Below, piece by piece: positions 40,074-53,030 of a stretch of 64,000 nt of DNA; within the stretch, counting starts at the first letter, position 1; every line of letters begins with the position of its first letter. The notes below the pieces were generated by a model. The model was not told where the DNA came from and did no database searches. It saw only the letters and a list, made by a program, of their open reading frames with translations. Source of the DNA: Alphaproteobacteria bacterium (lineage in GTDB: Bacteria; Pseudomonadota; Alphaproteobacteria; JAXMDU01). Position numbers and translations under genes: made by a program. The stretch lies in NCBI GenBank assembly GCA_046348645.1, contig JAXMDU010000004.1, positions 32,645 to 96,644 on the forward strand, given 5' to 3'.

Positions 40074-40320
40074 CAGGCTGGCCCGTTGGCAGGCGACCTG
40101 AGCGCAAGCATCGCTGTCGGCGGATTTTGCATCGGCCGGGATCGCCGCCCGGCCTCGCTCGCCCCGACAAATATCATTTTATTTCAACAGCTTGATTGAC
40201 AACCGGCGGGTGGCACGACGGGCCGGCAAGGTTCGGTGCGGCATTTTTCCCTGTCGAGAATCTTTACACTTGCCGGCGCCGGACCTCGCCCTATCCCAGC
40301 AAGCCGCTGGAAAACAACAA

Positions 40321-40354
40321 TTAACCATGTTTGGCACGGCTCTTGCATGGTTAA
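40321..40354 (+). promoter_or_regulatory. sigma-54 (-24/-12) promoter TGGCACG-N4-TTGCA embedded in a perfect 9-bp inverted repeat
   Basis: ttaaccatg TT TGGCACG gctc TTGCA tggttaa; consensus spacing exact; about 85 bp upstream of the PEP-CTERM gene start. Confidence 0.6.
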
Positions 40355-40431
40355 CGGCAGGTCGTGAACCGCGCCGGGTGCCAGACCGGCGCATGGGGCC
40401 GAAAACCAGAGCCACTATCCAGGAGGACACA

Positions 40432-41106
40432 ATGAAGAACCTAGCGATCGGACTGAGCGCTGCGCTCGCCCTTGCCATCGGCGGCACATGGCTTGGCGAC
40501 GCAAAGGCTGCGACCATTTCGGTTGAGAGCGGTGGCATCACCCTCAACTCGTTCGACACCACGAAAGCGGGCACCCTGGCAGATCCCTGGCTGATCGACG
40601 AGACGATGACCGCGCATGGCCATCTCAAGTTCTCGGGCGATGACGAACCGGGCGGCTCGAGCCCCCTTGGCGGTGCCAATCCGACGGGTAGCGGTCACGA
40701 CGAGGGTCGCTGGATCTCGAAGACGGTGCTGAACGATACCGGCATCACCTGGACGTCGTTCGAGCTTGAACTGCAGGTCCTTCTTGGCACGCCATCGGGT
40801 CAAGGCGACGGTCTCAGCTTCGCGGATGGCAGCAGCCTGACGACGCTCTTCACGTCGGACAAGTTCTCGTCCTACACGCGGTTCGACGTCGATCGCGACT
40901 ACCTGAACTTCAGCGGCGGCGAGGTCCTGGATGGCCAGTCGGTCACCTTCCTGTTCGTGATCACCGACAACCTGGCGAACGACCCGTTCTTCCTGCTGCA
41001 GACGCCGAACATCCGTGACGTGCCAGTGCCGGAACCGGCGACGCTGGGGCTGGTGGGCCTGGGCCTGGCCGGACTTGCGGCTTTGCGCCGGCGCAAGGCA
41101 TCCTGA
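40432..41106 (+). CDS. PEP-CTERM sorting-domain protein (exosortase substrate)
   Basis: Signal peptide MKNLAIGLSAALALAIGGTWLGDAKA; C-terminal VPVPEPATLGLVGLGLAGLAALRRRKAS (PEP motif, TM helix, basic tail). Confidence 0.85.
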   Translation: MKNLAIGLSAALALAIGGTWLGDAKAATISVESGGITLNSFDTTKAGTLADPWLIDETMTAHGHLKFSGDDEPGGSSPLGGANPTGSGHDEGRWISKTVLNDTGITWTSFELELQVLLGTPSGQGDGLSFADGSSLTTLFTSDKFSSYTRFDVDRDYLNFSGGEVLDGQSVTFLFVITDNLANDPFFLLQTPNIRDVPVPEPATLGLVGLGLAGLAALRRRKAS

Positions 41107-41160: not shown

Positions 41161-41447
41161 CAGCCGGCCTTCTCTGACCCCGGCCTTCTCTGACCAGCGC
41201 AATCGGGCCAGGCTAGGGCAGGACCGGGCGATAATGCCGCGCGCGATCTCCTCGCCATCGGCCACAACCACATCCGCGCCGAAAGATTTGAGATAGGCTT
41301 GCTGCTCGCCCTTCGGGGCGTGCCCCGCGATGCGGATCCCGGTGTTTGCGGCCCGCCGGCCGCGGGGCCATTCAAGACCTGGCCCTGGTCATGCAGCCAG
41401 ACTGATTTGAATTATAATAAATCAATACCGTCGCTGTTGACCACCGC

Positions 41448-41461
41448 GTTGACTTCAGTCA
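41448..41461. promoter_or_regulatory. FNR/FixK-type box TTGAC-N4-GTCAA upstream of ubiT
   Basis: Perfect palindrome ttgacttcagtcaa centred about 34 bp upstream of the predicted ubiT start, next to an AT-rich stretch. Confidence 0.5.
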
Positions 41462-41487
41462 AAGACGACCCCAGCAATTCACCGAGA

Positions 41488-42066
41488 ATGGCCGCGATGT
41501 CGAGTTTCGCCCCCGCCCCGGAAGGGGCACCCTGCCTGCCGCCCCTGGCCGGCCGTCTGCTGGCGCCGTTGCCGCTGGGGCCGATCGCCCTGGTTGCCGG
41601 GCGCCTGTTGGGGCGGATCGCGCGCCACCATCCCGAGATGTTCGACCGCCTGGGCGAAAGCGCGACGAAAACCTTTCTGATCGACGCGACCGACCTGCCA
41701 TTCGTTTTTGTGCTGCGGCCCGATCCACTGCGCCCACGGATCGCCGTCACAAGACGGGGCCGTATCCCCGCATTCGATGCGCGAATCGCGGGCCCGCTGG
41801 CGGCTTTGCTGGGCCTTGTCCAGGGAACCTATGACGGCGATGCCCTGTTCTTTTCGCGCGACCTGATGATCGAAGGCGACGTGGAAGCGGTGCTGGCGCT
41901 GCGCAACGCCATCGACGATGCCGAGCTTGACCTGCTGAGCGAAGCCACCGGCCTGTTAGGGCCGCTTCGCCGGCCGGCCGAAGCCCTGTCGCGCGACGTG
42001 TTGCCGGTCATTCATTGGCTGGCGCGGGCATTGCCGCCCCAGCCCCTGGGTCGCCGCGCCCCATGA
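41488..42066 (+). CDS. ubiT: SCP2-domain ubiquinone biosynthesis accessory factor UbiT
   Basis: LFFSRDLMIEGDVEAVLALRNAIDDAEL resembles E. coli UbiT (YhbT); stop overlaps ubiU start (ATGA); start uncertain (41488 or 41497). Confidence 0.65.
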   Translation: MAAMSSFAPAPEGAPCLPPLAGRLLAPLPLGPIALVAGRLLGRIARHHPEMFDRLGESATKTFLIDATDLPFVFVLRPDPLRPRIAVTRRGRIPAFDARIAGPLAALLGLVQGTYDGDALFFSRDLMIEGDVEAVLALRNAIDDAELDLLSEATGLLGPLRRPAEALSRDVLPVIHWLARALPPQPLGRRAP

Positions 42067-43055
42067 CCCCCCGGCACCTGGAACTGGTCTGCCCGGCTGG
42101 AACGCCGGCAGCCCTGCGCACCGCGGTCGATGCCGGGGCGCACGCCATTTATTGCGGCTTCAATGACGAAACCAACGCCCGCAATTTCCCCGGCCTGAAT
42201 TTTTCGCGCCAGGACATGGCCAGGGGCATTGCCTATGCCCACGGCAAGGGTGCCAAGGTGCTGGTCGCCATCAACACCTTTCCACGCGCCGGCGCCGAGA
42301 CGCTTTGGCACCGGGCCGTCGCCGACGCCGATGCAGCGGGGGCAGACGCGATCATCCTGGCCGATATCGGCCTCTTGGCCTTTGCGCGCGACCACCACCC
42401 GCGGCCACGCCGCCATGTGTCGGTGCAGGCGGCGGCCGCCAATCCCCAGGCCATCGCGTTCTACACCGGCGAATTCGGCGTCAAGCGTGTGGTGTTGCCG
42501 CGTGTCCTGTCGGTTGCCGAGATTGCCGCCATCAACCGCCAGATCGACTGCGAGACCGAGGTCTTCGTCTTCGGCGGTCTGTGCGTCATGGCAGAGGGGC
42601 GTTGTTCCCTGTCGTCCTATGTCACGGGAAAGTCGCCCAACATGAATGGCGTCTGCTCGCCCGCCAGCGACGTCAGCTACCAGACGATCGGAACATCGGT
42701 CGTCTCCCGCCTCGGCGGATTCACCATCGACCAGGCCTCGCGCGACGAGCCGACCCCTTATCCGACCCTGTGCAAGGGATGCTTCAAGTCCGGTGCCTAT
42801 ACCGGCCATGTCTTTGCGGAACCGGCAAGCCTTGACGCGGCCGAACTGATCCCCGCCCTGGCCGAGGCCGGCGTTTCGGCGCTCAAGCTTGAAGGCCGGC
42901 AGCGGAGCCGCGCCTATGTCGGCAATGTCGTAAGCACGTTTCGCCGCGCGGTCGATGCCTATGCGGCGGGAAAGCCCATTCCAGCCGGGCAGTTGCAGGC
43001 GATGAGCGAAGGGCAAAGCACGACGGCCGGGGCCTATGTCAAGACCTGGCGATAG
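42063..43055 (+). CDS. ubiU: U32-family O2-independent ubiquinone hydroxylase subunit UbiU
   Basis: Peptidase U32 features (LELVCPAGTPAALRTAVDAGAHAIYCG, conserved Cys cluster) plus ubiT-ubiU-ubiV order. Confidence 0.7.
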   Translation: MTPRHLELVCPAGTPAALRTAVDAGAHAIYCGFNDETNARNFPGLNFSRQDMARGIAYAHGKGAKVLVAINTFPRAGAETLWHRAVADADAAGADAIILADIGLLAFARDHHPRPRRHVSVQAAAANPQAIAFYTGEFGVKRVVLPRVLSVAEIAAINRQIDCETEVFVFGGLCVMAEGRCSLSSYVTGKSPNMNGVCSPASDVSYQTIGTSVVSRLGGFTIDQASRDEPTPYPTLCKGCFKSGAYTGHVFAEPASLDAAELIPALAEAGVSALKLEGRQRSRAYVGNVVSTFRRAVDAYAAGKPIPAGQLQAMSEGQSTTAGAYVKTWR

Positions 43056-43064
43056 GACGGCGCC

Positions 43065-43997
43065 ATGACCGCCATGCCACCCGGGCGAATGGGTCTCACG
43101 CTGGGGCCGGTGCTGTTCCATTGGAATGGCACGCAGCTTTCCGATTTCTATGTCCGGATCGCGGACGAAGCGCCGGTCGAGCGGGTCTGCATCGGCGAGG
43201 TAGTCTGTTCGAAGCGCTTGCCAAGCGTCATCGACAGCCTGGCCCGGGCCATCGAACGCCTGGAACGGGGCGGCAAGGAGGTCATTCTTTCGACCCTTTC
43301 CCTCGTCACCCTGGAGAACGAAAGAAACCGGGTCACGGATCTGGTTCGCGACGCCGCCATGCCCGTCGAAGTGAACGATATTTCGTCCGTTCCGGCGGTT
43401 CAGGGACGCGCCTTCACGGTCGGCCCGTTCGTCAACATCTACAATGAAAGCACGCTCGGCTATTTTGCGCGCCATGGCGCGACGCGCATCTGCCTGCCGC
43501 CCGAACTGCCGCTGTCGTCCATCGCGGTCCTGGCCCGGACCGGCGCGCCGCTTGGCGTTGCCTGCGAGGTTTTCGGCTTCGGGCGTGTGCCGCTTGCCAT
43601 GTCAGGCCGCTGCTATCACGCCCGCCTGCACGGGACGCGCAAGGATGCCTGCCAGTTCGTGTGCGAAAAGGACGCCGACGGGCGGCCCGTCGATACGCTG
43701 GACGGGCAGCCGTTCCTGGCGGTGAACGGCGTCATGACCATGTCGCAGAGCTGCGTCAACCTGATCGAGGATGTCCGCGACATCGCGGGCGCCGGGATCG
43801 ATTCGATCCGCCTGTCGCCCCAGACCTGCGACATGGTCCGGGTCGCGAAGATTTTCCGCGCCGCCATCGATGGCGAGCGGGACCCGGCCGCCGCGCGCCA
43901 GGACCTGGCCGCGCTCATTCCCTTCGCGCCCTTTTCGAACGGGTTCCTGCACGGGACGCGCGGCGTCGCCTATGTCGGTCCCGCAGAGGCCGGCTGA
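43065..43997 (+). CDS. ubiV: U32-family O2-independent ubiquinone hydroxylase subunit UbiV
   Basis: U32 family (YhbV-like), cysteines CEVFGFGRVPLAMSGRCYHARLHGTRKDACQFVC; last 20 codons lie in the left direct repeat. Confidence 0.7.
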   Translation: MTAMPPGRMGLTLGPVLFHWNGTQLSDFYVRIADEAPVERVCIGEVVCSKRLPSVIDSLARAIERLERGGKEVILSTLSLVTLENERNRVTDLVRDAAMPVEVNDISSVPAVQGRAFTVGPFVNIYNESTLGYFARHGATRICLPPELPLSSIAVLARTGAPLGVACEVFGFGRVPLAMSGRCYHARLHGTRKDACQFVCEKDADGRPVDTLDGQPFLAVNGVMTMSQSCVNLIEDVRDIAGAGIDSIRLSPQTCDMVRVAKIFRAAIDGERDPAAARQDLAALIPFAPFSNGFLHGTRGVAYVGPAEAG

Positions 43998-44217
43998 AAC
44001 GCCCTATTCCGCCGCCTTCTGGCGGAACTTCGAGAGCGAGCCCGAATGCATGATCTTGCCGTTGAGATTACGGCCGATCATGCCTTCCACCATCTGCGCG
44101 CAACCGATCAGCTTGTCGAGATCGATGCCGGTCTCGATGCCAAGCTCGGCGCACAGGAACACCATGTCCTCGGTGCAGATGTTGCCGGCCGCGCCCTTGT
44201 GGCCGGCGAAGGGACAG
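43937..44217. repeat. left copy of about 281-bp direct repeat (ubiV 3' end, spacer, 3' end of HMG-CoA lyase-like gene)
   Basis: Near-identical to 48104-48386 with a few 1-2 nt indels/substitutions; flanks the low-GC insertion. Confidence 0.85.
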
Positions 44218-47200
44218 CCGCCGAGCTCACCCTCAGCATCCCATCAACCCAGGAGCACAATAACCCCAGACTCTACTTGTGAATACGATCAAAGCCAGGA
44301 GCACTTCAGCGTCACAGAATGAGAATTCTGTGGAAGCACACTTTTTACGCTTCTTCGCTCCGTTTTTTCGTTGTTGCAACCCACCGCCGTGACGCGCCTC
44401 CTGCCTTGCCTCGCTTTTTCTTCCCTCCCAGATTCACAGCCCCCTTACACTTCGGGTAGTCAGCGCATCCATAGAATGGGCCGAAACGTCCGTTGCGAAG
44501 CTTAGTAGGCCCACCGCATTCAGGGCATGGAGGCCCATCCTTCTGCAGTGACGGATCGGACGGGGAGCTTTTTCGTCCAGACGTGCCCCGCGCACTGTCG
44601 TGCCAGCCGCAGCCTTCCTCATCCTCGCATGTAAAGTACGGGCCGTAGCGGCCCTCCGCATAATATGTTCGCGAGTTGCAGTTCGGGCATCGCGGATTTT
44701 CTGCCTCGGCTACCGTCGAAGCTGCCTCCGCTCGCGCGATCCCAATCCTCTTCGAGACGAATGCAGCAACCTGTTCTGCGAACCCTTCGCTTTCGGCCCT
44801 GGTCATGAACTCATCTGTTCGAGACGTATGTGACAAGGGATTGAGAGAGCCCGACCAGATGACGCGATTATCAATCAAGACGATCTTCTCATGAATGTCG
44901 CGCCGGCAATCGACGACCACCCCAATTCCTTCCAAAGCATCCAAGGCTTGTTTCCCAAGCTCCTCGGGAATTGAGCCGTTGAACCGGGGTGGCCTCGTTA
45001 CACACCGAATTGCGACTCCGTCGCCGATTTTTGTTCTGAACAGGTCTCCATAGGACGCTACACGCTCCGGCGTTATGAAGCCGGAATACATGACAATCGA
45101 CCGCTCCGCCCGGTTCATATCCACCAGACAAGCGTCGGCGAATGTTTTGGAGTGAAACAGCCCGAGCTTCTCTGCATCCAGATCAAGCTCAACAATGCCC
45201 ATGAGGTCTTTCAGATCGCGTTCAATCGGACGCAACGCCATCACTTCGGAAGCGTCGATCACACGACCATGTTCCTGCGCAGTGTGCAGGATACCTCTAA
45301 GCAACGCGGTGCTGGGCAGATGCATATCGAGATAGGTCAGATTGGCCAGCACCAAGAGGTGCTCTTGAGCCCGGCTGACGGCGACGTTCATGAGTCGGGC
45401 ACCGACGTGCTTAGGAGGGATACCCTGCACAAACAACCCAATCCTCCGACTTGGCCCAATGCTTTCAGGGATATCGAGGATCATCATGCGCTTTTCGTCG
45501 CCTTGATAACGATGGACTGTACCGGTCGCGGCGAGTTGGGCCACTGGCTCCATATCCCCAATAAGCTTCTGCAACAGTTTGGCTTGTGCTGCATAGGGCG
45601 TGCATACACCGAGCGCGCTTGAGCTATCCAGAAATCCGTTTGATGCTAAATAGCCGACAAGATTTCGGATGAGAAGCGCATTCAGAAGGTTGAATCGGGA
45701 TTTAAAGATGTTTCGGCTTTCGAACGGCCATAGTCTGGACGTATCGATGATGGTAAGCGCCCCGTCATATGGCGCAGGCGGTCGTGGGCCGTTGGGCCGA
45801 TGGCGTTCTTTGGCCGTTGTAAGCCTTCCTTGATACATGTCTGTCGCGATGAGGCCGCATATCTCGTCCGTCATGCGATACTGAGTATCGAGCAGCGCAT
45901 ATCTGGGATCTTCGCTCTTTCCGTCGATGCCCGCCGACTCAAAGACATCCTGCCCAATGAGATCGTGGATTGCCTGTTGGCGGCTCGGCAAGATCGGCGG
46001 GAGCTGTCGGAAATCACCAGAAACGATCACCCGTTCCGTTGACAGGCCCGCAGCGAAATAAAGCGCGGGCAGAAGCACCATCGACGCTTCGTCAATCACG
46101 ACAACATCAAACCGGCCTATGTCACGTGCCTGGAGGTACGACTTTGCAACAGTTGTCCCGATCACGCGCGCCTCACGCATGATCGACGCTTCCATTTCCG
46201 CTAACCGCCGCGCAATTTCCTGAAGTTCGGCCACAAGCGGCTGACGTTCACCATCAATCGCCTGTCTGTCCCTTTCAAGCTGTTGCCGGTCTTGTACAGA
46301 GAGCTGGGATGCCAAGGATTCAGCCGAAGATCGCACTTCGTTACGTTTGTTCTCTAATGTCTTGGCTTCGGCCGTCCCGTTTCGAACAATTGCTTCCTGA
46401 CGCGCTATTTCCGATTCGGCACGTCGATAGTCGCTTATGATTATCTCATCGGAACGAAGAAAAACGCGACGCAACACGCCTGCGCTTTTCCGCTGTTGCA
46501 GCTCAGCTTTGCAGTCCTGAATTTGTTGCTGCGCCTTTTCATAGGATGCGGCAGCAGTCTTTATGGCGTTAAGGCATGTGTTCAGTTGCTGATTGAGGGA
46601 TGTCAGCTTGCTTTCGGTCCTATCAAGCCGCGCAAAGAGCTGAAGCTTTTCGTTTATAGATGTCGCTTTGGCGTCGAACAGCGCCACTTGTTCTTCCAGC
46701 TCGTGTTGTCGCTCCCTGAGTCCCTTCGACAACCGTTCGATAATACCGTCTGTCGTCACATAGGATGCGTACTCGTTCTTAAGCTCCGGAAGGACAATGT
46801 TGCCGATGCGAACAACTTTGCCTTCTTCAAACGCGGCATGTTTGAGATGCTCCAGATGACGGCAAAGCTTATAGATAAGCTGATCAACAGCCTGGTTCGT
46901 GTTGGAGCAGACGAGGATACGCTTTCCAGCGTCAAATGCGGCTTGAATGCCGACGGACAGTGTTTGCGTTTTTCCCGTCCCCGGAGGTCCCCACAGGTAT
47001 GAAATGCTGTGCTCCAGCATCAAGTGCAGTGCAGCGTTCTGGCTATCATTCAGATCGTGAGGCGGCACGCCGATTGGCGACACTTCGGAGTTGTGGATTT
47101 CCTTGGATACGACGCTATCCGCCACTGATGCAGATAGATTCAGTTCGCCCTTGCCCACCTGATCAAGGCGGTCTTTCAGTGCTTCGATCAGAGCCGTGTT

Positions 47201-48103
47201 GTCGATGAGAAGTATGCAACGTCGGATTGATGGTCCCAGGTTGCCATCCAGCGAAATAAGTATGGTCCCTTCCGATATTGATACGATTTGCCCTCTGCTA
47301 CGTCGGCCATCGACTTCAATTTCTATTCGCGCTTCCTCGAAAATCTCCGCTTCTTCAGAGAACGGGAATACATAGATAGGTTGGCCCGCCTGCGTGTCTA
47401 CGACTTTGCCGCGCTCCAGTTCATAACGGCGACTGCCGCTACCTTCTCTTCGCATTTCGCTTATCAGGGCGTCGAGCGCGAGAACATAGCGCTGTATGTT
47501 TGTGGAATCCTGCGGCAGATCGATAACCAGATCGGTGTCCAGAGCCGGTTGGTAGGCATCAGGCTTTCCCCTAACCCCTGGAGCAGCGATCCCGGTGAAA
47601 TGTTGCGGTATCCTCCTGTCATCAGGTTGCTCGTCCGGGATAGACGGAGTTGATACTTCAGCAGGCCTTTGGCTCGCCGAAGCGAATGATGCCGCTGGGT
47701 CTGAAGATGTACGGGAAGGTACGGGCCGGTTCTCCGGGCGCACGCCAACAGGCTGCCCCTCAAACAAGTGGCCGGTTGGCGCAGGGCCTTCCCTTGATTG
47801 GTTCTCTATTGCTGTGAGGCGTTCTTCAACTCGGCTACGAAGCCTCTTTGCCCGGTCGGTCTTCCGGTGTTCAAGCTCATCGAGAAGGCTCCGCATCGTG
47901 GCCCGCTCTTCGCCTTTTTCGGCGAAAAGCTTCTCAAGCTGGACTATTCCATGCTGGATGAAGGTCCGCTTCATTCTTGGTCGCCTGCCTCAAGCGCCGT
48001 TCCTTTGCTCCCAGGAAAACGTATGCCACTTCGGATGGTAAGAATTTCTCAAGACCATAGTGTTGCCCCCTAGAATAGTGCCGACGGCGAGGTAACGCTT
48101 CTT
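44218..48103. mobile_element. putative horizontally acquired insertion (about 3.9 kb, lower GC), no integrase/transposase, single cargo gene
   Basis: GC about 47-52% in sampled lines versus about 60-75% in flanks; bounded by the 281/283-bp direct repeats; interrupts the 3' region of the HMG-CoA lyase-like gene. Confidence 0.55.
44345..47974 (-). CDS. 1209-aa fusion: Upf1-like SF1 helicase + PLD (HKD) nuclease domain + two topoisomerase-type C4 zinc ribbons
   Basis: Helicase motifs WGPPGTGKTQT, VCSNTNQAVDQL, VVVIDEASM, SGDFRQLPP, QYRM, VHRYQGDEKRMMILD, NVAVSRAQEHL, with about 250-aa coiled-coil insert between Walker A and B; HKD motif HEKIVLIDNRVIWSGSLN; ribbons CPNC...C..C and CPEC...C..C; K/R-rich tail. 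Confidence 0.75.
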   Translation of the reverse strand: MKRTFIQHGIVQLEKLFAEKGEERATMRSLLDELEHRKTDRAKRLRSRVEERLTAIENQSREGPAPTGHLFEGQPVGVRPENRPVPSRTSSDPAASFASASQRPAEVSTPSIPDEQPDDRRIPQHFTGIAAPGVRGKPDAYQPALDTDLVIDLPQDSTNIQRYVLALDALISEMRREGSGSRRYELERGKVVDTQAGQPIYVFPFSEEAEIFEEARIEIEVDGRRSRGQIVSISEGTILISLDGNLGPSIRRCILLIDNTALIEALKDRLDQVGKGELNLSASVADSVVSKEIHNSEVSPIGVPPHDLNDSQNAALHLMLEHSISYLWGPPGTGKTQTLSVGIQAAFDAGKRILVCSNTNQAVDQLIYKLCRHLEHLKHAAFEEGKVVRIGNIVLPELKNEYASYVTTDGIIERLSKGLRERQHELEEQVALFDAKATSINEKLQLFARLDRTESKLTSLNQQLNTCLNAIKTAAASYEKAQQQIQDCKAELQQRKSAGVLRRVFLRSDEIIISDYRRAESEIARQEAIVRNGTAEAKTLENKRNEVRSSAESLASQLSVQDRQQLERDRQAIDGERQPLVAELQEIARRLAEMEASIMREARVIGTTVAKSYLQARDIGRFDVVVIDEASMVLLPALYFAAGLSTERVIVSGDFRQLPPILPSRQQAIHDLIGQDVFESAGIDGKSEDPRYALLDTQYRMTDEICGLIATDMYQGRLTTAKERHRPNGPRPPAPYDGALTIIDTSRLWPFESRNIFKSRFNLLNALLIRNLVGYLASNGFLDSSSALGVCTPYAAQAKLLQKLIGDMEPVAQLAATGTVHRYQGDEKRMMILDIPESIGPSRRIGLFVQGIPPKHVGARLMNVAVSRAQEHLLVLANLTYLDMHLPSTALLRGILHTAQEHGRVIDASEVMALRPIERDLKDLMGIVELDLDAEKLGLFHSKTFADACLVDMNRAERSIVMYSGFITPERVASYGDLFRTKIGDGVAIRCVTRPPRFNGSIPEELGKQALDALEGIGVVVDCRRDIHEKIVLIDNRVIWSGSLNPLSHTSRTDEFMTRAESEGFAEQVAAFVSKRIGIARAEAASTVAEAENPRCPNCNSRTYYAEGRYGPYFTCEDEEGCGWHDSARGTSGRKSSPSDPSLQKDGPPCPECGGPTKLRNGRFGPFYGCADYPKCKGAVNLGGKKKRGKAGGASRRWVATTKKRSEEA

Positions 48104-48386
48104 GAACGGGTTCCTGCACGGACGCATGGCGTCGCCTATGTCGGTCCCGCAGAGGCCGGCTGAAATCGCCCTATTCCGCCGCCTTCTGGCGGAACTTCGA
48201 GAGCGAGCTCCGAATGCATGATCTTGCCGTTGAGATTACGGCCGATCATGCCTTCCACCATCTGCGCGCAACCGATCAGCTTGTCGAGATCGATGCCGGT
48301 CTCGATGCCAAGCTCGGCGCACAGGAACACCATGTCCTCGGTGCAGATGTTGCCGGCCGCGCCCTTGTGGCCGGCGAAGGGACAGC
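48104..48386. repeat. right copy of about 283-bp direct repeat
   Basis: Duplicate of 43937-44217; contains a degenerate copy of the ubiV 3' end and the 3' end of the HMG-CoA lyase-like gene. Confidence 0.85.
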
Positions 48387-49129
48387 GCGAGCGCGGCGAG
48401 CGAACTGTCGAACAGATCGACGCCCATTTCGAGCGCCGCGTAGAAATTCGCCGGGCCAAGGCCGCGAGTATCGTGCAGATGGAGGCCGATCCGCACCTCG
48501 GGCCAGATCTCGCGCACGATGCCGATGCGGCGCTTGATCGCTTCCGGATTGGCCCAGCCGACCGTGTCGGCAAGATAGAGGGCCGGGATCTTGTAATCAT
48601 GCTCGGCGGTCACCGCTTTGATCAGCCGCACGTTTGTGGCGATCTGGGTCTCGGGGATCTCGCCTTCCATGTTGCAGCCGAAGGCGGTCGCGATATAGGC
48701 GGCCGAGGGCGCGACACGATGCTGCTTGTAGAGCTCGATCCATTCGTGCTGATCCTTGCGGTACTGCTCGATGCTGCGGTTGTTGTTCTGGGTGCAGAAG
48801 GCCTCGCTGGTGGAATAATAGATGACGCCTTCAAGGGTTACGTTCCTGAGATCGAGGGCCCGCAGGAAGCCCTGCTTGTTGAGCCAGGTCGCCGTATATT
48901 TCACGCCCGGCCGCGGATGGATGGCGGCGAAGAATTCGGGCGTGTCGGCCATCGGCGGCACCCGTTTCGGGTTGACGAGCGAGGCGACGTTGATGTGCTT
49001 CAGACCGGTATCGCTCAGGGCATCGATCAGGGCCACCCGCTGTTCCAAGGGATAGATGGTTTTTTCGATCTGGAAGCCCTCGCGCGGGCCTTCCTCGCGG
49101 AATTCGACGAAACGGGGCAGCGTCGCCAT
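48136..49129 (-). pseudogene. HMG-CoA lyase-like (DRE-TIM metallolyase) gene, frameshifted at the repeat/insertion junction
   Basis: N-terminal body (FREEGPREGFQIEKTIYP...RIGLHLHDTRGLGPANFYAALEMGVDLFDSS) in ORF 48236-50107; C-terminus (CPFAGHKGAAGNICTEDMVFL...) in ORF 48136-48600; frame changes at about 48387-48395. Confidence 0.6.
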
Positions 49130-50968: not shown

Positions 50969-52021
50969 TCAGCTTGCGCCTTTCTTGGCCTCGCTCAGAA
51001 CGAAGTCGAGCATCTGCTGGGCGGGATAGCCCTTCGGCGTCATCTCCTTCACCCATTCGTCCCAGACGGGTTGCCCCCCGACACGGGCGAATTCCTCGCG
51101 CATGGCGGGCGGGATCACCACCGTCCTAACACCCCGTTTCTTGAAGGCATCCTCGGCCTTGTCTTCTTCGGCCTGCAGGGCGTCGCTCTGGGCTTTGTGG
51201 GCCGCGGGGGTGACATCGAGAATCACCTTCTTGTACTGGGGCGGCAGCTTGTTGAAGGCATCGCGATTGAAATCGACATTCGAGATCGACACGCCGAGCG
51301 CCAGGCCCTTCGTGTACCACTTGCTGATCTCGTGAAGCTTGTAGACCTCGAAGGCGTAATAGGCGAAACCGGCGGCGTCGATCACGCCGCGCTCCAGGCT
51401 GCCATAGACCTCGGGGCTGGTGACCGAGGTGGCCACGGCGCCAAGCTTGGCCATCGCCGCGCCCTGACCGCCGATCGCGCGCACCCGCAGGCCTTTCCAG
51501 TCGGAAAGCTTTTCCGGCGCCTTGCCGGTGCCCATGAACTCGTAGGACGGAATGACATTCGACAGGCCGTAATTGACGTTCCAGACATCGAAATCCCGCT
51601 TCACGAACGCATGCCGATGGAAGATATCCGAGACGCGTGTCTGGGTTCTCAGGTCATCGAGCGGAAGGAAGGGCAGGCTCAGCACCGCAAGGCCGGGCTG
51701 CTTGCCCGGCGCGAAGGCGGGCACCACCCATCCCGCTTCATAGGCCCCGAGCTTGAGGCCGTCCAGGACTTCCTTTTCAGGGGACAGGGTCGCGCCATAG
51801 ACGACCTCGATCCTGAAATTGCCGTTCGTCTCGGCGGCGACAAGTTCCGAGAACTTGTCCATCGAGATCGAAACGGCGCGTGGCTTGCCATAGGCGGCCA
51901 GCCGCCAGTGGACCTTGGGCCCGTCGACGGCGGCCTGGGCCGCCGCCGCAGAGCCGAAAACAAGCGCCGCCCCAAGCGTGATCGCCGCGACGGTCATACC
52001 AAAACGATAATGCAAGAACAT
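50969..52021 (-). CDS. periplasmic solute-binding protein, TRAP DctP-like family (orphan)
   Basis: Start MFLHYRFGMTVAAITLGAALVFGSAAAAQA after GGAGGA; fourth SBP paralog. Confidence 0.55.
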   Translation of the reverse strand: MFLHYRFGMTVAAITLGAALVFGSAAAAQAAVDGPKVHWRLAAYGKPRAVSISMDKFSELVAAETNGNFRIEVVYGATLSPEKEVLDGLKLGAYEAGWVVPAFAPGKQPGLAVLSLPFLPLDDLRTQTRVSDIFHRHAFVKRDFDVWNVNYGLSNVIPSYEFMGTGKAPEKLSDWKGLRVRAIGGQGAAMAKLGAVATSVTSPEVYGSLERGVIDAAGFAYYAFEVYKLHEISKWYTKGLALGVSISNVDFNRDAFNKLPPQYKKVILDVTPAAHKAQSDALQAEEDKAEDAFKKRGVRTVVIPPAMREEFARVGGQPVWDEWVKEMTPKGYPAQQMLDFVLSEAKKGAS

Positions 52022-52208
52022 GGCAGATTTTCCTCCGTGCGCCTTTGATCTGATTGTTGTGATTTGCAGAGCACGTTGCCGGTTGTCCGGCAGAGCCGAT
52101 CCCGACATTGCATCCATGATTGCCCAAATGCTGGAAAAGTCGAGGGGAAATGCGCGGCCCTCAATTCATGCAATTCGGTCGCACATGCAAGATGGCGACT
52201 GGAAATGG

Positions 52209-52237
52209 AAAAAGCCCGCCACGGGTCAGCGCGGCGG
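52209..52237. repeat. 29-bp direct repeat copy 1 (AAAAAGCCCGCCACGGGTCAGCGCGGCGG), degenerate terminator
   Basis: Identical 29-mer recurs at 52989-53017; together they bracket a roughly 750-bp lower-GC segment. Confidence 0.8.
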
Positions 52238-52401
52238 CATGAACGGCCGAACATTCGCCGTCGCCTTCATCGAAGGACTGCCAAAACCGCAACCAGAAAA
52301 GGAGGAGAAGCAATCCGAAATACGAGACACCAACAAAGTCGCCTGACGCCCCCGCTCACCGCGGCACTGTCAGCCGATTACCCTCTCCGTACATGTTTTG
52401 C

Positions 52402-52869
52402 CTACCGCGCCCCTGAAAGCTGCAAGAGTCCGGACCAAGCGTTCACGATAACGACAAACATTCCGCAAAGTATGACAATAAACAAACCGGTCGTTACGGG
52501 CCAATCATACCAAAAACTGACGCGATCACGGTTTACTTCGCCGTAGACCTCTCGCGCATCTTTCTCAAATCTACCGTATAGGCGATTCAACCTCTCTCTT
52601 TTCTCTTTCATTGAATCCGTCGCGTAGACGATCACCATCAACCACATCTCCGCCACACCGATAGCGGCAATCGTAAGAATGGTCTTCCCCCAGCACGTCA
52701 GAGCGAACGGTGTCCGTGTCAAAAAGTACAGAGCGGCAAAGAGCAGCAGGGCATAATTCGTGATCTTCCAAGTCCTATCCTTCATGGCCGCGATATGTGC
52801 GATGGCGTCGCGGTGAATCATGTCGTACGCCCGCTGCGTTTCGACCTGTTCGGGTTGCTTTTCCTCCAT
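52402..52869 (-). CDS. small membrane protein of unknown function, 155 aa, three predicted TM helices, low GC
   Basis: Start MEEKQPEQ after AAGGAG; hydrophobic stretches ITNYALLLFAALYFL, ILTIAAIGVAEMWLMVIVYA, TTGLFIVILCGMFVVIVNAW; GC about 48%. Confidence 0.55.
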   Translation of the reverse strand: MEEKQPEQVETQRAYDMIHRDAIAHIAAMKDRTWKITNYALLLFAALYFLTRTPFALTCWGKTILTIAAIGVAEMWLMVIVYATDSMKEKRERLNRLYGRFEKDAREVYGEVNRDRVSFWYDWPVTTGLFIVILCGMFVVIVNAWSGLLQLSGAR

Positions 52870-52985
52870 GGCCGACTCCTTCAAATGTATCACCTTGAAT
52901 AGGCTACCGAGGATTAAGCCGTGTTTGGAAAAATTCCAGCGCGCCAATGTTGCAAAGGCGAGAGGCCCACATGCCCGAGAGCGCC

Positions 52986-53030
52986 AATAAAAAAGCCCGC
53001 CACGGGTCAGCGCGGCGGGCTTTTGTCTTT
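52986..53030 (-). terminator. rho-independent terminator for the MaoC-like gene; includes 29-bp repeat copy 2
   Basis: GCCCGCC...GGCGGGC stem; minus-strand RNA ends in UUUUUUAUU, plus strand has TTTTGTCTTTC. Confidence 0.75.

Follow-up and report, generated by a model that had tools for sequence, protein, structure and literature searches.

A helicase-phospholipase D protein with tandem zinc ribbons, the sole cargo of a low-GC alphaproteobacterial insert, is a distant relative of Mokosh type II

Background

In a 64,000-nucleotide stretch of an alphaproteobacterial metagenome-assembled genome (MAG; GenBank:GCA_046348645.1, contig JAXMDU010000004.1, positions 32,645 to 96,644), hereafter called the window, one gene (44345..47974, minus strand) encodes a protein in which a helicase, a phospholipase D (PLD) nuclease and two zinc ribbons are fused. 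The locus raises the question of whether this gene is an anti-phage system on its own and, if so, whether it belongs to a system already described. The initial annotation regarded the gene as a candidate for a defence system of one gene, either resembling Mokosh type II or representing a new variant, and left open the domain order of type II Mokosh as well as the occurrence of the coiled-coil insert and the zinc ribbons in it.

Mokosh is among the commoner of the recently discovered anti-phage systems, and its mechanism is largely unknown. A relationship of this prokaryotic system to the piRNA-pathway pair MOV10L1/Zucchini has been proposed; Escherichia coli yjhR was treated as a helicase-PLD fusion and the parallel to MOV10L1/PLD6 was drawn (Cury et al.). 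Type II consists of one gene with an N-terminal helicase (COG1112/Upf1-like) and a C-terminal PLD nuclease, and Mokosh defence is lost upon mutation of the ATP-binding site or the PLD active site (Millman et al. 2022 preprint). The analysis below reveals that the window protein is a distant, zinc-ribbon-bearing relative of Mokosh type II and not a new kind of system.

Gene product and conserved motifs

The gene is complete, with an ATG start and 1209 codons, and its product is identical to an entry labelled "AAA domain-containing protein" (GenBank:MFO1188323.1; Alphaproteobacteria MAG, 253-kb contig). All motifs quoted in the initial annotation were located in this product, including 1) the helicase motifs GPPGTGKT (residues 329-336), VVIDEASM (625-632), GDFRQLPP (653-660), QYRM (698-701), VHRYQGDE (820-827) and VAVSRAQ (864-870), 2) a single HKD motif, HEKIVLIDNRVIWSGSLN (residues 1028-1045; HEKIVLID at 1028), present in one copy per chain, 3) two ribbons with the cysteines C1096-x2-C1099...C1116-x5-C1122 and C1150-x2-C1153...C1170-x5-C1176, and 4) a basic tail (residues 1181-1209, pI 11.6).

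Pfam searches gave significant matches to AAA_11 (E 2.4e-36) and AAA_12 (E 3.1e-23). Zn_ribbon_Top1 (PF01396) scored 34.3 bits over a cut-off of 32, a threshold passed by the second ribbon, the first ribbon alone staying below it. PLDc_2 scored 25.4 bits, slightly under its cut-off of 27, but most homologues have this family on record. Across 76 aligned full-length homologues, H1028, K1030, D1035 and N1045 of the HKD motif were invariant, as were the lysine of Walker A, D628, Q657 and six of the eight cysteines in the ribbons, with E629 and the remaining two cysteines conserved in at least 90% of the sequences. The helicase and ribbon assignments held in the profile search, and for the nuclease, which fell just short there, the invariant HKD residues together with the fold matches described below confirmed the assignment independently of the marginal PLDc_2 score. 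The domain identities of the 1209-aa protein are near certain.

Predicted structure

An AlphaFold2 model of residues 1-1200, built with the 76-sequence alignment, had a mean predicted local distance difference test score (pLDDT) of 85.4 and a predicted template modelling score of 0.72; a separate model of residues 901-1209 had a pLDDT of 86.7. At the N terminus, a conserved helical segment (residues 1-59; 47798..47974, minus strand, as for all parts below), in which E33, R37 and L45 are invariant, is predicted to form three helices within residues 10-59, and is followed by a poorly conserved linker (residues 60-117; 47624..47797) predicted to be disordered (pLDDT <50). No Pfam or PADLOC match was found in the N-terminal 300 residues when the protein was scanned in pieces. 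A homologue search with these 300 residues returned two fragments only, a weak negative as this search appears biased to matches of query length.

Ahead of Walker A, the region at residues 159-289 (47108..47500) was assigned by topology to the stalk/1B position; a helix and a beta-barrel span residues 159-258 of the model, the barrel proper being at 181-258. The first part of RecA1 (residues 308-395; 46790..47053), which holds the Walker A motif GPPGTGKT, is separated from the second part, with motif II DEAS (628-631) and motif III GDFRQLPP (residues 602-690; 45905..46171), by a long helical, coiled-coil insert at the 1C "prong" position (residues 396-601; 46172..46789), modelled as helices at 417-497, 509-557 and 563-601. 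RecA2 (AAA_12) follows with QYRM, VHRYQGDE and VAVSRAQ (residues 691-880; 45335..45904), and in the model a helical, conserved linker joins it to the single-HKD PLD nuclease domain containing H1028, K1030, D1035 and N1045 (residues 941-1075; 44750..45154). The first C4 zinc ribbon (residues 1092-1128, C1096, C1099, C1116 and C1122; 44591..44701) and the second (residues 1146-1182, C1150, C1153, C1170 and C1176; 44429..44539) were both modelled as three-stranded, and the protein ends in a basic disordered tail (residues 1183-1209; 44348..44428).

Foldseek comparison of the full-length model with the PDB returned SETX, IGHMBP2 (TM-score 0.73-0.75 on the target), Upf1, DNA2, Aquarius and ZNFX1 as top folds, with E values down to 2e-29. 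A PDB sequence search agreed, matching IGHMBP2, Upf1 and Sen1. By their topology, the barrel and the long helices would correspond to two insertions known from Upf1-like helicases, 1B and 1C. With motifs I-VI, two RecA domains, a 1B barrel and a 1C insertion, the protein is an Upf1-like helicase of superfamily 1B (SF1B). For the C-terminal model, the top folds were mouse Zucchini/PLD6 (PDB:4ggk, E 1.5e-7), Salmonella Nuc (PDB:1byr), Helicobacter pylori NucT (PDB:6ehi) and the single-stranded DNA (ssDNA) exonucleases PLD3/PLD4; the nuclease part is therefore a single-HKD PLD of the Zucchini/Nuc type. The tandem ribbons aligned with residues 712-792 of E. coli TopA (PDB:4RUL, E 3.6e-4). No solved Mokosh structure was found in these PDB sequence and fold searches.

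The nearest solved folds, SETX, IGHMBP2, Upf1 and DNA2, are housekeeping proteins, and TopA-type ribbons are likewise used by a housekeeping enzyme. Both observations would fit a cellular maintenance enzyme similar to DNA2, SETX or IGHMBP2, a helicase-nuclease with which the host would process aberrant RNA, R-loops or flaps of ssDNA. However, NCBIfam equivalogs for housekeeping functions scored far under their cut-offs, and the best profile matches of the protein are models of the anti-phage Mokosh system.

Relationship to Mokosh

Comparisons with MkoA, MkoB and MkoC were made as PADLOC profile scores, which are not calls by PADLOC or DefenseFinder with their own cut-offs. The matches were to MkoA (6e-54 with PDLC03920, and 1.5e-43), MkoC (3e-41) and MkoB (1e-4), the best thus being MkoA and not MkoC; four other family members likewise had MkoA as top match (185-199 bits) with MkoC at 139-171 bits. 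The MkoA profile PDLC03921 aligned with residues 260-902, insert included. The MkoC profile (1136 positions) aligned in three collinear segments, namely residues 307-599 with positions 248-531, 753-896 with 822-963, and 953-1055 with 1001-1106, leaving positions 1-247 unmatched; it stops about 30 positions past the PLD domain. Its score for the window protein was 139.5 bits versus 1689 bits for the E. coli reference (aligned over 1-1135 of 1136), so that a full-length match at the family level was not obtained.

This E. coli reference, WP_000344098.1, was found by a distant blastn search and is intact, with 1171 aa and a mass of 131.5 kDa. It is located in the leuX island (locus L013, 3502-7017), with genes for an HNH endonuclease, a restriction endonuclease, an annotated PLD-like anti-phage protein and an anti-phage-associated DUF1156 protein as neighbours. 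BLASTP aligned it with residues 611-1050 of the window protein at 24% identity (E 1e-18), and hhalign of the family profile against the full-length protein gave a probability of 99.8% for residues 622-1070 with 656-1137, an alignment that spans the region just before motif II, RecA2, the linker and the HKD motif. In the N-terminal half, nothing beyond Walker A could be aligned. Judging from these sequence comparisons, the window protein and E. coli MkoC are homologous and share the same architecture, the relationship being remote.

The domain order that had been left open proved to be the same in both, as the window protein has the helicase (residues 308-880) followed by the PLD domain (941-1075), in agreement with the definition of type II by Millman et al. 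Both sites on which Mokosh defence depends are also intact, i.e. GPPGTGKT and DEAS for ATP binding and H1028/K1030/D1035 for the nuclease (at least 90% conserved in the 76 sequences). Domain order, Mko profile matches and the hhalign result together support the earlier proposal of a type II-like protein or new variant. The coiled-coil insert, which had been called unusual, is indeed present, but is not unusual for this group, since the spacing from Walker A to motif II is 299 residues here and longer, 402 residues, in E. coli MkoC. The insert of the latter is known by its length and by a composition in which L, E, A, K and Q are abundant, and the alignments of the MkoC and MkoA profiles each run through the long insert of the window protein.

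The mass of WP_000344098.1 matches that of the 132-kDa EcMokosh II described in a 2025 nuclease-NTPase preprint. In that work the purified protein (~132 kDa) was a monomer in solution, cut ssDNA only among the DNAs tested, nicked plasmid, and protected against ssDNA phage only; for cleavage, the figure legend gives 1 uM only, whereas the text says that the enzyme was active at all tested concentrations. No Mokosh-specific mechanistic paper beyond this preprint was found in our literature search.

It was also noticed that yjhR of strain K-12 (L001, 10016-11032) is a C-terminal 338-aa remnant of type II Mokosh, consisting of the helicase end and the PLD domain. A yjhR-type gene was truncated or disrupted by an insertion sequence at all three E. 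coli loci inspected (L001, L002 and L003). Matches to a gene of ~69% nucleotide identity came from 555 E. coli genomes (identity band of 60-80%), and the one inspected was the intact 1171-aa gene of the leuX island.

Insert and flanking repeats

GC content was 62-69% throughout the window, except at 44-48 kb (53-58%) and in a small patch at 52-53 kb. The gene, with 54.8% GC versus 64.5% for the rest of the window, lies in the deepest dip and is bracketed by a direct repeat of ~290 bp (copies at 43931-44220 and 48098-48388, spacing 4167 bp). The repeat contains the convergent 3' ends of a ubiV-like U32-peptidase gene (43065-43997, plus strand) and an HMG-CoA-lyase-like gene (minus strand, stop codon at 48236). 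Between the two copies, identity is complete over the 177 bp on the side of the lyase gene and 92-98% over the remainder, where two 1-nt indels occur, the several mismatches and the indels all being confined to the ~110 bp proximal to ubiV. The left copy (43931..44220) carries the intact 3' end of the ubiV-like gene and a duplicated, non-functional 3' fragment of the lyase gene, and the right copy (48098..48388) a degenerate relic of the ubiV-like 3' end and the intact lyase 3' end. Because each copy holds one intact and one dead gene end, we infer a single crossover between the chromosome and a circle, i.e. a Campbell-type integration, without an integrase, of a circular molecule that carried the gene and ~290 bp of homology.

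Between the repeats, no other credible gene was found in the 4.17-kb insert, including integrase, replication or transfer genes. A promoter scan of the insert returned zero sigma-70-like sites, and terminator-like matches were located within the open reading frame (ORF) only. Look-ups of an empty site using the flanking ubiV-like and HMG-CoA-lyase-like proteins returned nothing on record. The GC contrast and the delimiting repeats bear out the earlier statement that the gene is the only cargo of a lower-GC insertion, and it is concluded that it entered the chromosome by horizontal acquisition as sole cargo of the 4.17-kb insert. The insert is a clean example of integrase-free chromosomal capture of a single-gene system between 290-bp duplicated host sequences.

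As the source is a MAG and the GC content of the gene is unlike that of the host, we considered that the gene might belong to another replicon or organism and have been joined by the assembler through a shared 290-bp repeat. An independent Logan assembly of one run, in which the gene is on a 3.9-kb contig that stops at the repeats, would be in line with such a joining. However, the two copies are non-identical, which makes an artefact unlikely, and their differences are distributed as expected of two true copies if the crossover took place within the 177 bp that are identical. Moreover, a foreign replicon has no reason to carry the ubiV-like and lyase 3' ends of this host, and short-read assemblers normally break contigs at a 290-bp repeat. 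We therefore hold an assembly artefact to be highly improbable.

The insert begins directly downstream of a plus-strand cluster (41299-43997) formed by an SCP2-domain gene followed by two U32-peptidase genes (42015-43055 and 43065-43997), which we take to resemble the UbiT/UbiU/UbiV cluster for oxygen-independent ubiquinone synthesis. The second low-GC patch (52000-53000, 53% versus ~64%) contains a 181-aa ORF (52402-52947, minus strand) that is hydrophobic by eye and has no Pfam match; it may be another small acquired gene. A 304-aa ORF (40192-41106, plus strand) ends with a PEP-CTERM sorting motif (Pfam, 7.8e-08) and is unrelated to the helicase-nuclease.

Distribution and genomic context of homologues

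Full-length homologues of ~1170-1250 aa with the same domain set span many phyla, with hosts including Thioalkalivibrio, Citrifermentans bremense, Terriglobales, Marinimicrobia, Hydrogenedentota, Bacillota, Planctomycetota, Frankiaceae, Nanopelagicales and Chloroflexota. With the C-terminal 309 residues as query, phmmer found, among 1.84 billion cluster representatives, 152 matches at E<=1e-30 and 754 at E<=1e-10, and the family comprises ~150 clusters at 50% identity. Most matched proteins were 1000-1330 aa with the module at the C-terminal end, some matching through the first ribbon only. A contig scan with the peptide patterns WGPPGTGK and DEASMV, which are very generic and give no estimate of prevalence, recovered at least about 10 full-length relatives. 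A literature search on the domain combination zf-C4_Topoisom, PLDc_2, AAA_11 and AAA_12 did not find the family described.

No conserved neighbour gene was found across the homologue loci, in line with the earlier designation of a single-gene system. Relatives with 79-86% nucleotide identity share the ORF alone, within ~20 bp, and have unrelated flanks. In Thioalkalivibrio (GenBank:KB898087.1; L008, 5464-17892), the homologue is part of a type I restriction-modification operon in the order hsdM, hsdS, DUF4357, homologue, BrnT pair and hsdR, with an AAA_15/AAA_21 ATPase gene and a DUF6361 gene downstream and several toxin-antitoxin pairs nearby; this locus is a compact defence island. In Citrifermentans (GenBank:AUGE01000017.1), a gene (L010, 8531-9448) encoding a restriction-endonuclease-like Mrr_cat-Zn_ribbon_Top1 protein lies directly upstream of the homologue, and since this neighbour carries the same ribbon module, Zn_ribbon_Top1 appears to be a recurrent accessory of defence nucleases. 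Other homologues are near MqsA/ParE/Phd, near VapBC, or near a relaxase and TacA, and the homologue with 79% identity has AbiEii upstream and a transposase fragment downstream (L005 and L007, the latter including 505-1320). Type I restriction-modification subunits were also present among 104 neighbouring ORFs of 10 GTDB loci. Across these loci the contexts are variable, often with defence or mobile-element genes and in some cases flanked by housekeeping genes, and are thus not the conserved core-genome setting expected of a housekeeping function. The family behaves as horizontally mobile single-gene cargo, often but not always among defence genes.

At the loci of the 79%-identical homologue, a 97-aa ORF (L005, 1335-1628; L007, 1883-2176) shares 4 nt with the start of the gene. 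It was rejected as a conserved partner, since it lacks both a Pfam match and an equivalent in the window.

These contexts also bear on the cellular maintenance enzyme considered above. The window copy and P0017, a 53%-identical copy, lie among metabolic genes, as such an enzyme might. The atypical GC content and the insert bracketed by repeats argue against it, as do the spread over many phyla, the variable contexts and the lack of synteny even between copies that are 79-86% identical. With the profile evidence, a maintenance role seems to us quite unlikely.

A function for the mobile element that carried the gene, such as exclusion of or competition with rival plasmids or phages, or maintenance/addiction, has also to be weighed; the window copy would then be a remnant left after integration. 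Direct repeats of 290 bp are the signature of single-crossover integration of a circular molecule, homologues are found beside a relaxase, transposases and toxin-antitoxin modules, and distant relatives occur on plasmids. However, the insert lacks any integrase, replication or transfer gene, many copies are outside recognisable elements, and searches of 72,556 plasmids and of 50,697 phage records yielded no close relative (at least 80% query coverage), the best matches covering at most 70% of the query at <30% identity. In mechanism, such a function would partly coincide with defence, from which it is not easily told apart; as an explanation in its own right we consider it unlikely. A reading as a Helitron-like self-mobilising protein, combining a nuclease with a covalent intermediate and an SF1B helicase, was set aside, as the ORF of the relatives is not accompanied by conserved non-coding termini.

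Proposed function

Mokosh homology, the low-GC insert and the variable contexts with restriction-modification, toxin-antitoxin and transposase neighbours support a role in defence, and we propose that the protein is probably a stand-alone helicase-nuclease acting against phages or other invading DNA. Of the original designation as a candidate single-gene defence system, the single-gene part is thus borne out by the loci, and the defence part is drawn by analogy.

It is known that the C-terminal zinc-ribbon domains of E. coli topoisomerase I bind ssDNA, and that Nuc and Zucchini act as dimers, one HKD motif being half of a PLD active site. By analogy, the ribbons and the helicase may load on single-stranded nucleic acid of the invader (phage ssDNA intermediates, R-loops or RNA), ATP hydrolysis would power 5'-to-3' translocation, and the PLD domain would nick or cleave the single strand. 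Because one HKD motif is half of an active site, cleavage probably requires two molecules meeting on the substrate, perhaps via the coiled coil. A free monomer would then stay harmless, with activity limited to substrates on which several copies load.

Several observations weigh against defence, or against carrying the properties of EcMokosh II over to this family. The first ~600 residues were unaligned with E. coli MkoC in hhalign, the PLDc_2 score is marginal, and the remote similarity to MkoC (24% identity, 139 versus 1689 bits) means that the function of EcMokosh II transfers only loosely to the window protein. Several homologues, the window copy and P0017 among them, stand alone between housekeeping genes, and metabolic genes account for many of the neighbours in the 10 GTDB loci, so the association with defence islands is partial in the loci inspected. 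E. coli Mokosh II is monomeric in solution (2025 preprint), and our scheme presumes the target, whether ssDNA or RNA, as well as dimerisation and a role for the coiled coil; the defence role of the family is likewise presumed, by analogy.

A more far-reaching form of the defence reading is that the family represents a separate, third Mokosh-like lineage, missed or mislabelled by current defence profiles, in which the ribbons serve for ssDNA sensing and the coiled coil for substrate-induced dimerisation that assembles the split HKD site on nucleic acid of the invader only. We regard this combination as possible but doubtful. If true, licensing by substrate-induced dimerisation would be the first such mechanism described for Mokosh.

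Comparison with known systems

Among single proteins, the Upf1-like SF1B helicases (IGHMBP2, Upf1, SETX/Sen1, DNA2 and MOV10L1) share with the window protein the fold, the motifs and a barrel before Walker A in the 1B position, whereas sequence identity is 15-18% and the coiled coil at 1C is far longer here. Similarly, for the MOV10L1-Zucchini pair of the piRNA pathway, mouse Zucchini/PLD6 is the best structural match of the PLD domain, but here the helicase and the nuclease belong to one covalent chain, which also carries TopA-type ribbons. With the C-terminal ribbons of E. coli TopA (PDB:4RUL) the protein has in common the tandem C4 ribbons and the Zn_ribbon_Top1 match; it differs in lacking Toprim and the topoisomerase core, the ribbons being an accessory module.

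Of the two types of Mokosh, type I (MkoA plus MkoB) resembles the window protein in that its helicase core is the closest by the MkoA models, and the PLD domain also matches MkoB. Membership in type I is nevertheless not supported, since the nuclease is fused, no Ser/Thr-kinase domain is present, and the gene has no neighbouring PLD gene, its neighbours being the U32-peptidase and HMG-CoA-lyase-like genes. With type II (MkoC) it shares 1) a single polypeptide of ~132-134 kDa with an Upf1-like helicase followed by a single-HKD PLD domain, 2) a long insert between Walker A and motif II, and 3) the lack of a partner gene, together with variable, often defence-rich contexts. It differs in the N-terminal ~300 residues, which are unmatched, and in the ~135 residues after the PLD domain that form two TopA-type ribbons and the basic tail. 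The E. coli lineage ends ~35 residues past the HKD motif without CxxC, so the question of zinc ribbons in type II Mokosh is answered in the negative for the E. coli MkoC/YjhR lineage. PF01396 is carried by about nine-tenths of the best 120 homologues of the window protein and was absent from 120 listed YjhR-like matches, a weak negative as the YjhR query was a 338-aa fragment and its matches were of similar or shorter length.

Thus the architecture and probable role of this protein are already known from a common system, Mokosh. What sets the family apart is its MkoA-like scores, the two extra ribbons, an unrelated N-terminal region, and its being unnamed in the databases and literature searched; profile-based defence annotation probably undercounts this helicase-PLD-ribbon architecture. 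As a widespread sister lineage that has kept the helicase-linker-PLD core and added ribbons of an ssDNA-binding type, it provides a natural comparison with which to ask which target, ssDNA or RNA, Mokosh recognises and how a single-HKD nuclease is held inactive.

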